Source: Escherichia coli
GTDB lineage: Bacteria; Pseudomonadota; Gammaproteobacteria; Enterobacterales; Enterobacteriaceae
Assembly: GCF_041248615.1 (NCBI RefSeq)
Contig: NZ_CP158426.1
Direction: 5' to 3' (one strand)
DNA: 64,000 bases
The notes below the pieces were generated by a model. That model saw nothing but the letters and a program-made list of their open reading frames with translations, did no database searches and was not told where the DNA came from. Positions within the stretch are counted from its first letter, which is position 1. Each line of letters begins with the position of its first letter. Position numbers and translations under genes: made by a program. Shown here one piece after another: positions 535-44,899 of this stretch.

Positions 535-578
535 GGGGCTTCTCCAAAACGTGTTTTTTGTTGTTAATTCGGTGTAGA

Positions 579-614
579 CTCGTAAACCTAAATCTTTTCA
601 ATTTGGTTTACAAG
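579..614. promoter_or_regulatory. bio operator (BirA binding palindrome) in the bioB-bioA divergent promoter region
   Basis: Inverted repeat CTCGTAAACC...GGTTTACAAG between the divergent bioB and bioA starts. Confidence 0.6.
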
Positions 615-620
615 TCGATT

Positions 621-3227: not shown

Positions 3228-4373
3228 ATGATATTATCATTACAATATATTAGAGGAATAGCATCATTACTTGTTGTTTTATTCCACTTCAGATTCTTGC
3301 TAAATGAGCACTACTCTCAGAAAGATTTGGGTGACCTATTATTTGGGAATGGGCTGTCTGGAGTTGATATATTCTTCATATTAAGTGGATTTATCATCGT
3401 ATACTCAACAAGAAAGAAGGAAGTTAATGATACTTTCTCATTCTCAATTAGAAGAATATTTAGAATATACCCATTACTAATCACATGCTGTTGCATGTAT
3501 TACATAATAAACACTCAATTTCTAACCTATGCTACAGTTGAAAACTTTAGAACCTTACTTATTTCCATCATTCCATTAAATATAAACTGGAATGAAGGCG
3601 CTCCATTCTTTGCCTATAATCTTTTGTACCCGGCCTGGACGATAACATATGAAATTGGTTTCTATGTTTTTTTCGGGGTATCAATGTCTATTTCGCATAA
3701 ATACAGAACAATTATCTGTTCTGTTTTTATAATCATGGTGGTCTCATTTACACAATACTATGTAAATGGAAATATATCATTTTCAGGTGATGTTAGTGCA
3801 GGGTTATTTACAGATAACTGGTTATTAGGATATACAAATGTTATTACATCTCCAATGATGTATGAATTCGTTATTGGGATGTTTCTTTCTGAAATATTTA
3901 CAAACATCAACGAAAGCAAAAGTATTAAAAGGATACTTTCAAAGTATTCGCTTCAAATACTATGGATTTCATGTGGTATATCCATAATATTATTCATTAT
4001 CCAGCGACCTTATGGGCATGGATTGAATGGATTTGGGACTATGGCGATGATACTTATTGCATCATCATTAGTATATGAATACTGCAATATAACACCCAAA
4101 ATAAAAATATTTAATTTCCTTGGTGAAATATCATATTCTTTATATCTAATTCACGCCGTGATACTTGCTTTGTTCTTCTATTATAAGGCAGACCTTGCTG
4201 AAATTGGCATAACTGGTGGATTTTCTGTGTTTTTTTCCTTGGTTATTATCTCAATAACTGCATCATATCCAATATATATTCTCATTGAAAAGCCAATGAT
4301 AAATATAGGTAAACGTTTAATTGACAAGAGAAATAAGAGCATTAACAAAAAAGAAACCGAAATAACAGCGTGA
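3228..4373 (+). CDS. integral membrane acyltransferase, family 3 (putative O-antigen/polysaccharide O-acetyltransferase)
   Basis: Very hydrophobic multi-TM protein; N-terminal R/H motif YIRGIASLLVVLFH typical of acyltransferase family 3; ATG at 3228 chosen over the track's TTG at 3198; AT-rich codon usage. Confidence 0.7.
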   Translation: MILSLQYIRGIASLLVVLFHFRFLLNEHYSQKDLGDLLFGNGLSGVDIFFILSGFIIVYSTRKKEVNDTFSFSIRRIFRIYPLLITCCCMYYIINTQFLTYATVENFRTLLISIIPLNINWNEGAPFFAYNLLYPAWTITYEIGFYVFFGVSMSISHKYRTIICSVFIIMVVSFTQYYVNGNISFSGDVSAGLFTDNWLLGYTNVITSPMMYEFVIGMFLSEIFTNINESKSIKRILSKYSLQILWISCGISIILFIIQRPYGHGLNGFGTMAMILIASSLVYEYCNITPKIKIFNFLGEISYSLYLIHAVILALFFYYKADLAEIGITGGFSVFFSLVIISITASYPIYILIEKPMINIGKRLIDKRNKSINKKETEITA

Positions 4374-6140: not shown

Positions 6141-7166
6141 ATGACTAGTACCAATAACATAACAAGAAAAAAAATGGATGGAGTAACAATCTTAAGATTT
6201 ATAGCTGCTTTTTATGTGTTTATTTTTCACATTAACATGAGAGTCCCCGTTAATTTTGGAGAGCTTATTAATAAAACCATTAGCAATGGCGTCATTGGCA
6301 TGAGTATTTTCTTCATGCTTTCTGGTTTTGTTTTGACTTATAATTACTATGGTTCCTTGTCAAACAATTACTTCAGGAAGCGAATAGCAAGAATATTTCC
6401 AGCCTATTTATTTTGTGGGCTTTTAACCCTCCCATTTTTGTTATCCAGCGATGCAAGCTTTTTAAAAATGATTGCAAGCATATTCTTGTTTGTTACTGGA
6501 ATGCAATCATGGATTTATCAGACCTTCGATTTTTGGAATTTTAGCGGTACCTGGTCAATATCAGTGGAATTGTTTTTTTATGCCCTGTTTCCATTTTTGA
6601 TAAAAAACATCAACAAAAACAATGTAATTTATGTTTTACTTTTTTCATATTTATCTTCAGCATTATTAATCCCATTATCTGATATAATTCAGGGACCTGT
6701 AGTTTGGTCCGTATATTACGCAACTCCAATATACAGGTTACCAGAATTTGTGGTGGGCGTCTGTATCGCAATACTTTTTTTAAATGGCTATCGTGTTAAC
6801 CATTATACATGGCTATTAAGCATTTTATTATTTCTGTATGCTACCACCCAGCAAAACAATAACTCCATGGGGGTGAACTATCTCACAATTCCTGCGATAT
6901 CAATTATGTTATTGCACCTGGCAAAAATCAACATCAAAAACAACATTGCAAACAGAGCGATCATTTACTTTGGAGATATAAGTTATTCGTTTTATTTGAT
7001 GCAATTACCTATATTATATTACCTGGATCATAATAAAAACTCATTTATTCTTAACTATGGTCTTTTTAGCTGGCTTGTACTTTTTGTTATTAATACTGCA
7101 ATGGCATCATTATCTTATCACTTTCTGGAGAAGAACGATAAAATCAGAAAAATAATTACATCCTGA
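6141..7166 (+). CDS. integral membrane acyltransferase, family 3 (second copy, divergent sequence)
   Basis: 341-aa hydrophobic protein with motif ILRFIAAFYVFIFH; AT-rich. Confidence 0.7.
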   Translation: MTSTNNITRKKMDGVTILRFIAAFYVFIFHINMRVPVNFGELINKTISNGVIGMSIFFMLSGFVLTYNYYGSLSNNYFRKRIARIFPAYLFCGLLTLPFLLSSDASFLKMIASIFLFVTGMQSWIYQTFDFWNFSGTWSISVELFFYALFPFLIKNINKNNVIYVLLFSYLSSALLIPLSDIIQGPVVWSVYYATPIYRLPEFVVGVCIAILFLNGYRVNHYTWLLSILLFLYATTQQNNNSMGVNYLTIPAISIMLLHLAKINIKNNIANRAIIYFGDISYSFYLMQLPILYYLDHNKNSFILNYGLFSWLVLFVINTAMASLSYHFLEKNDKIRKIITS

Positions 7167-29841: not shown

Positions 29842-29917
29842 TGGTGCTGGTTAACGGACTTGAACCGCTACCCATTCGCTTACAAGGCGACTGCTCTACC
29901 ATTGGAGCTAAACCAGC
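29842..29917 (-). tRNA. tRNA-like gene, anticodon UGU (Thr) by manual folding
   Basis: 76-nt cloverleaf: acceptor GCTGGTT/AACCAGC, D arm GCTC-CAATGGTA-GAGC, anticodon loop CTTGTAA (U33, A37), T arm AGCGG-TTCAAGT-CCGTT, 3' ACCA; one anticodon-stem mismatch. Confidence 0.55.
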
Positions 29918-29922
29918 ATGTT

Positions 29923-29997
29923 TGGCGGGACAGCGTGGACTCGAACCACGATAAGAAGGTTAACAGCCTTCCGTAATGACCTTTATACGACTGACCC
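29923..29997 (-). tRNA. tRNA-like gene, anticodon GUU (Asn), possibly degenerate
   Basis: Anticodon arm GAAGG-CTGTTAA-CCTTC and T arm CGTGG-TTCGAGT-CCACG are perfect; acceptor stem has one mismatch and the D stem is short. Confidence 0.45.
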
Positions 29998-43518: not shown

Positions 43519-43544
43519 TTGCGTGTAATTGCGGAGACTTTGCG

Positions 43545-43763
43545 ATGTACTTGACACTTCAGGAGTGGAATGCACGCCAGCGACGCCCAAGAAGCCTTGA
43601 AACAGTTCGTCGATGGGTGCGCGAATGCAGGATATTCCCTCCTCCGGTTAAGGATGGAAGAGAATATCTGTTCCACGAATCAGCGGTAAAGGTTGACTTA
43701 AATCGACCAGTAACAGGTAGCCTTTTGAAGAGGATCAGAAATGGGAAGAAGGCGAAGTCATGA
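43545..43763 (+). CDS. xis: excisionase
   Basis: 72 aa MYLTLQEWNARQRRPRSLETVRRWVRECRIFPPPVKDGREYLFHESAVKVDLNRPVTGSLLKRIRNGKKAKS, lambda Xis; overlaps int start. Confidence 0.92.
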   Translation: MYLTLQEWNARQRRPRSLETVRRWVRECRIFPPPVKDGREYLFHESAVKVDLNRPVTGSLLKRIRNGKKAKS

Positions 43764-44811
43764 GCGCCGGGATTTACCCCCTAACCTTTATATAAGAAAC
43801 AATGGATATTACTGCTACAGGGACCCAAGGACGGGTAAAGAGTTTGGATTAGGCAGAGACAGGCGAATCGCAATCACTGAAGCCATACAGGCCAACATTG
43901 AGTTATTTTCAGGACACAAACACAAGCCTCTGACAGCGAGAATCAACAGTGATAATTCCGTTACGCTACATTCATGGCTTGATCGCTACGAAAAAATCCT
44001 GGCCAGCAGAGGAATCAAGCAGAAGACACTCATAAATTACATGAGCAAAATTAAAGCAATAAGGAGGGGGCTGCCTGATGCTCCACTTGAAGACATCACC
44101 ACAAAAGAAATTGCGGCAATGCTCAATGGATACATAGACGAGGGCAAGGCGGCGTCAGCCAAGTTAATCAGATCAACACTGAGCGATGCATTCCGAGAGG
44201 CAATAGCTGAAGGCCATATAACAACAAACCCTGTCGCTGCCACTCGCGCAGCAAAATCAGAGGTAAGGAGATCAAGACTTACGGCTGACGAATACCTGAA
44301 AATTTATCAAGCAGCAGAATCATCACCATGTTGGCTCAGACTTGCAATGGAACTGGCTGTTGTTACCGGGCAACGAGTTGGTGATTTATGCGAAATGAAG
44401 TGGTCTGATATCGTAGATGGATATCTTTATGTCGAGCAAAGCAAAACAGGCGTAAAAATTGCCATCCCAACAACATTGCATGTTGATGCTCTCGGGATAT
44501 CAATGAAGGAAACACTTGATAAATGCAAAGAGATTCTTGGCGGAGAAACCATAATTGCATCTACTCGTCGTGAACCGCTTTCATCCGGCACAGTATCAAG
44601 GTATTTTATGCGCGCACGAAAAGCATCAGGTCTTTCCTTCGAAGGGGATCCGCCTACCTTTCACGAGTTGCGCAGTTTGTCTGCAAGACTCTATGAGAAG
44701 CAGATAAGCGATAAGTTTGCTCAACATCTTCTCGGGCATAAGTCGGACACCATGGCATCACAGTATCGTGATGACAGAGGCAGGGAGTGGGACAAAATTG
44801 AAATCAAATAA
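43741..44811 (+). CDS. int: tyrosine integrase (lambda Int)
   Basis: 356 aa MGRRRSHERRDLPPNLYIRNNGYYCYRDPRTGKEFGLGRDRRIAITEA... with catalytic R...HxxR...Y region; adjacent to attL. Confidence 0.95.
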   Translation: MGRRRSHERRDLPPNLYIRNNGYYCYRDPRTGKEFGLGRDRRIAITEAIQANIELFSGHKHKPLTARINSDNSVTLHSWLDRYEKILASRGIKQKTLINYMSKIKAIRRGLPDAPLEDITTKEIAAMLNGYIDEGKAASAKLIRSTLSDAFREAIAEGHITTNPVAATRAAKSEVRRSRLTADEYLKIYQAAESSPCWLRLAMELAVVTGQRVGDLCEMKWSDIVDGYLYVEQSKTGVKIAIPTTLHVDALGISMKETLDKCKEILGGETIIASTRREPLSSGTVSRYFMRARKASGLSFEGDPPTFHELRSLSARLYEKQISDKFAQHLLGHKSDTMASQYRDDRGREWDKIEIK

Positions 44812-44884: not shown

Positions 44885-44899
44885 TTAGTATAAAAAAGC
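44885..44899. other. attL core (lambda 15-bp common core, reverse orientation)
   Basis: Second exact copy of TTAGTATAAAAAAGC followed by host ybhC-proximal sequence. Confidence 0.88.

Follow-up and report, generated by a model that had tools for sequence, protein, structure and literature searches.

A C/T polymorphism in the biotin operator of Escherichia coli, with C widespread and apparently ancestral

The biotin operator, bioO, is among the best-studied operators in bacteria. Two BirA monomers carrying biotinoyl-5'-AMP form a dimer that occupies the two half-sites of bioO cooperatively; the operator overlaps both promoters of the divergent biotin genes, so that bound BirA represses bioA and bioBFCD together, and derepression follows when biotin is limiting or when apo-AccB is in excess (PMC5640590, PMC4462617). 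The published BirA consensus (PMC545781, citing Rodionov 2002) has the half-site TTGTAAACC, with T at the place that matches base 581 of the sequence described here. Table 1 of the same paper contains predicted BirA sites, acGTcAACC and GGTTgACgA, in which that place is taken by the same base as in our sequence.

We analysed a 64-kb stretch of E. coli DNA, referred to below as the window, which is matched at 100% identity over 24 kb by NZ_LT599825.1 (E. coli NRZ14408). An inverted-repeat search found, between the divergent genes bioA and bioBFCD, two arms of 15 nt (577-591 and 602-616) that are 87% complementary and separated by a gap of 10 nt. The BirA consensus TTGTAAACC-N16-GGTTTACAA has a single match in the entire window, at 580-613 and with C581 as its one mismatch, where 0.05 matches would be expected by chance. 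Moreover, the intergenic sequence is orthologous to that of K-12, whose operator has been characterised experimentally (90 of 91 positions, 39 of 40 within the operator). Taken by its repeat, its placement and this orthology, the element is bioO, the BirA-controlled biotin operator of Enterobacteriaceae; the birA gene falls beyond the window. The features of the region are collected in Table 1. An ORF of 466 codons starting at an ATG at 510 (510-1910) extends bioA upstream in frame and overlaps the bioB start on the opposite strand; it is the annotated start at 621, rather than ATG 510, that is conserved.

Table 1. Features of the window discussed in the text; both promoter entries are read from the sequence.
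Feature	Position	Strand	Remarks
bioB, 5' part	1-534	minus	start codon 532-534; annotation of NZ_LT599825.1
Putative bioA -10 hexamer	575-580	plus	TAGACT; directly 5' of 581
bioO, biotin operator	577-616		40 bp; imperfect inverted repeat between divergent bioB and bioA
bioB-proximal half-site	579-588	plus	CTCGTAAACC; variable base C581, T in K-12
Putative bioBFCD promoter	-35 at 613-608, -10 at 590-585	minus	-35 TTGTAA, 17-nt spacer, -10 TAGGTT
bioA-proximal half-site	605-614	plus	GGTTTACAAG; A612 is the partner of 581
bioA	621-1910	plus	ATG at 621; 99% identity to E. coli BioA
Prophage excisionase gene	43542-43760		
Prophage integrase gene	43738-44808		adjoins ybhC

The window also holds a 42.4-kb lambdoid prophage (2536-44899), inserted between ybhB and ybhC, where phage lambda has its attachment site, and flanked by two exact 15-bp copies of GCTTTTTTATACTAA (2536-2550 and 44885-44899), which we take to be the lambda att core. 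This version of the prophage is rare, since only 4 of 5,426 genomes match 80% or more of the first 24 kb. It carries genes for tRNA-Thr and tRNA-Asn (29842-29997) and, close to the tail-fibre genes at the end nearer to bio, two genes of the acyltransferase family (3228-4373 and 6141-7166), which could be cargo modifying surface polysaccharide. The annotation marks frameshifts in its Ser/Thr phosphatase gene and in ren. A prophage likewise sits at attB in E. coli 042, a strain of phylogroup D.

The two half-sites of the operator are not exact mirror images. The bioB-proximal one reads CTCGTAAACC and the reverse complement of its counterpart is CTTGTAAACC, so that C581 faces A612 as a mismatched pair in the palindrome. 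The earlier note on this DNA had singled out the same one-base asymmetry and had given T as the base at this position in K-12. Both points were confirmed by alignment of positions 535-625 with K-12 W3110, in which a single difference was found among 91 bases, at column 47 (position 581), where the window has C and the reference T; a base shared with the reference, which would have spoken against the claim, was not seen.

The frequency of each base was obtained from the 5,419 complete E. coli genomes that contain the region, in a collection of 5,426. For a query of 91 nt one mismatch corresponds to 98.9% identity, hence matches in the band at or above 99% are identical. Of the 5,419 genomes, 1,918 (about 35%) have the exact 91-mer with C581 and 3,225 the version with T581, whereas A581 is found once (E. 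coli MP1, NZ_CP139039.1) and G581 in none; around 275 genomes differ at positions other than 581. C581 is the second major allele of E. coli. As the C differs from the K-12 reference, it might be supposed to reflect a private mutation, a sequencing or assembly error, or a lesion of the operator-constitutive type. The identical 91-mer in 1,918 complete genomes excludes both a mutation private to the window strain and an error at 581. An operator-constitutive mutation, for its part, would be expected as a rare and derived change, but C was found in those 1,918 genomes and in every non-Escherichia sequence sampled, making six genera in all with the same base, and we attach a negligible probability to any reading of this kind. 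Seven of the 5,426 complete genomes gave no match to the 91-mer, which suggests deletions of the bio region, and two of the matches are located on plasmids.

Local haplotypes were examined by exchanging the variable base within longer sequences. A 401-mer of the UTI89 type with T substituted had no exact match in the 5,419 genomes, and neither had a 401-mer of the K-12 type with C substituted, the best match in each case being at 99.8%, that is, one mismatch. Recurrent mutation on either the UTI89-type or the K-12-type local haplotype was accordingly not seen within E. coli in these genomes. Because the exchanged 401-mers lack exact matches, position 581 is best described in E. coli as an old SNP linked to the local haplotype, not a recent mutation. 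In E. albertii, among contigs that encode one identical BioA, two have C, as does the type strain, one has T and one has A, all of them on albertii-type flanks; these three states imply at least two changes of the position within the genus. The other arm positions are invariant among the Escherichia sequences compared, with the exception of 579 in MOD1-EC7003. Within the operator spacer, T replaces C599 in E. coli E69, Salmonella, Citrobacter and Kosakonia, and G replaces A601 in E. coli MB06232.

To place the two alleles in a wider frame, outgroup operators were taken from contigs encoding BioA homologues; a scan of the genome collection with a degenerate pattern of the BioB N-terminus returned six species. 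Base 581 is C in 12 of 12 sequences from Salmonella, Citrobacter, Kosakonia, Kluyvera and Phytobacter, a sample comprising S. enterica together with five sequences from Citrobacter (in two BioA clusters), two from Kosakonia, two from Kluyvera and one from Phytobacter, with Klebsiella, Enterobacter and more distant Enterobacterales lying outside it. S. enterica subsp. diarizonae is among the carriers of C, as are Escherichia sp. MOD1-EC7003, the E. albertii type strain and the E. coli strains UTI89, IAI39 and E69. T is found in E. coli K-12, IAI1, O157 FRIK1989 and MB06232, in E. whittamii and in Escherichia sp. E1V33. At the partner position, 612, every one of the 29 sequences compared has A. 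We take UTI89 to belong to phylogroup B2, IAI39 to F, K-12 to A, IAI1 to B1 and O157 to E; the link between allele and phylogroup rests on these five reference strains, phylogroup D being outside the sample. The window strain is B2-like, because its ybhC protein is identical to that of UTI89.

The simplest reading of this distribution is that the asymmetric operator with C was the ancestral state in Escherichia and its neighbours, and that K-12 owes its T to a derived C-to-T transition, which would have arisen on the branch leading to phylogroups A, B1 and E. The 35:60 split between C and T in E. coli, in a comparison that leaves phylogroup D aside, fits a rise of T on that branch. Against this polarity, however, T also occurs in E. 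whittamii, in Escherichia sp. E1V33 and in one E. albertii, so that more than one change, or some recombination, would be needed. The same distribution admits a more adventurous proposal, namely that the natural enterobacterial bioO is deliberately asymmetric. The T that makes it symmetric would then have arisen or spread in more than one Escherichia lineage (E. coli A/B1/E, E. whittamii, Escherichia sp. E1V33 and some E. albertii) under selection for a changed biotin set-point or bioA:bioBFCD balance. We regard this proposal as quite doubtful. If it were true, the thermodynamics of BirA and bioO in K-12 would describe a derived operator, and a third of E. coli, like the other Enterobacteriaceae sampled, would use the C operator instead.

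Sequence conservation around the site bears on the function of the C operator. Across six genera there is hardly any variation in the operator arms or at the bioA start, whereas the sequence adjoining the operator on its left varies freely; apart from 581, both 12-bp arms are nearly constant in the same comparison. Retention of the arms next to a diverging flank indicates that the operator, C included, is under purifying selection. The persistence of C across genera argues against an operator-constitutive defect or a loss of regulation, and, because BirA has faced this form of its site across the family, we infer that the C operator is fully functional and gives normal repression. Any difference between C and T would probably be modest and quantitative.

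A stronger effect through BirA has nevertheless to be weighed. The earlier note had raised the idea that the change weakens repression of the bio operon, and in its developed form this reading holds that the bioB-proximal half-site is impaired by the C·A mismatch; repression of bio in C strains (B2 and F E. coli, Salmonella and others) would then be looser than in K-12-type strains, or would have a higher biotin set-point. C departs from the consensus TTGTAAACC and lowers the complementarity of the arms from the 14 of 15 positions seen in K-12 to 13 of 15. As binding is cooperative over two half-sites (PMC5640590), the energy of each half-site contributes directly. Conservation of C in every non-Escherichia sequence sampled would, on the other hand, be unexpected for a defective site, and the same base recurs in predicted BirA sites of other taxa (PMC545781). 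With C on the same side of the operator in at least six genera, the claim of weakened repression found no support, and we judge the regulatory reading to be rather improbable.

Base 581 falls within the terminal 12 bp of the operator. Footprinting by Streaker and Beckett in 1998 reportedly placed the contact region in these terminal 12 bp, and Barker, Kuhn and Campbell are said to have described operator mutants. A position that lies in this reported contact region and departs from the consensus could entail a measurable loss of affinity when it is C. Our literature search did not find position-specific data for bioO (operator-constitutive mutations, footprint contacts, start sites, or the operators of Salmonella and Citrobacter), nor data on BirA binding or expression for either allele.

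The position of 581 relative to the promoters opens another route by which the base could act, that is, by altering basal promoter strength or the bioA:bioBFCD ratio, and not mainly through BirA. The base is the first one after the putative -10 element of bioA and lies 4 nt downstream of the putative -10 of bioBFCD, between that -10 and the transcription start of a promoter whose TTGTAA-17-TAGGTT arrangement is found on the minus strand; it thereby adjoins both promoters as we place them. The hexamer at 575-580 has the form TAnnnT in 9 of 9 taxa aligned, being TAGACT in Escherichia, Salmonella, Citrobacter and Kosakonia, TATACT in Kluyvera and TATGAT in Phytobacter, and it keeps a fixed distance from the operator arm despite its diverging surroundings. 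Such a conserved TAnnnT would fit a -10 element of the bioA promoter. The promoter positions are, however, inferred from sequence, a consensus promoter and terminator scan of 480-680 called neither bio promoter, and bases at such positions are usually of small effect. We therefore consider a promoter polymorphism unlikely.

The explanation that we prefer combines a conventional operator with an old allele. The element at 577-616 would seat a dimer of BirA-biotinoyl-5'-AMP and thereby block the overlapping divergent promoters of bioA and bioBFCD. C581 would belong to an ancestral, naturally asymmetric bioB-proximal half-site inherited vertically in a B2-like lineage, and the T of K-12 would be a later C-to-T transition that makes the 581/612 pair symmetric. 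That the window carries a functional bioO with an ancestral, vertically inherited C, and that the K-12 base is the derived one, seems to us very probable as a whole. The earlier note had also considered a harmless strain polymorphism; the harmlessness is supported, but the direction has to be reversed, C being widespread and apparently ancestral and the T of K-12 derived.

For a known operator, C581 is natural variation of an ordinary kind; the base difference can already be seen in thousands of public genomes, and taken by itself it matters little. What it corrects is perspective: with the K-12 operator as the probable derived form, a non-K-12 base at 581 should not be taken for a regulatory lesion. 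Where the BirA-bioO interaction is modelled, or bioO is used in biosensor parts, in B2 or F strains of E. coli, in Salmonella or in Citrobacter, the C version would be the apt one. A measured difference between C and T in affinity or promoter output would make a small, clean case of natural operator tuning.

Compared with BirA sites described elsewhere, the asymmetry of the window operator has parallels at several evolutionary distances. The predicted sites of Geobacter bioF and Desulfuromonas bioB, in delta-proteobacteria, have a TcGT half-site with the same departure on one side only (PMC545781 Table 1), but these are computational predictions from distant taxa and have an N14 spacer. Much closer are the bio operators of Salmonella enterica, Citrobacter, Kosakonia, Kluyvera and Phytobacter, which present the same asymmetric pair, with ..TCGTAAACC towards bioB and GGTTTACAAG towards bioA. 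Their right arm and bioA start are identical to those of the window, and the differences are confined to the central spacer of 16 bp (T in place of C599, for example) and to the DNA outside the operator. The bioO of K-12 occupies the same locus, shares 39 of 40 operator bases and is identical over the rest of the 91-bp intergenic stretch; it differs at operator base 5, where it has T and the window C, and is the more symmetric of the two, with 14 of 15 arm positions complementary against 13 of 15.
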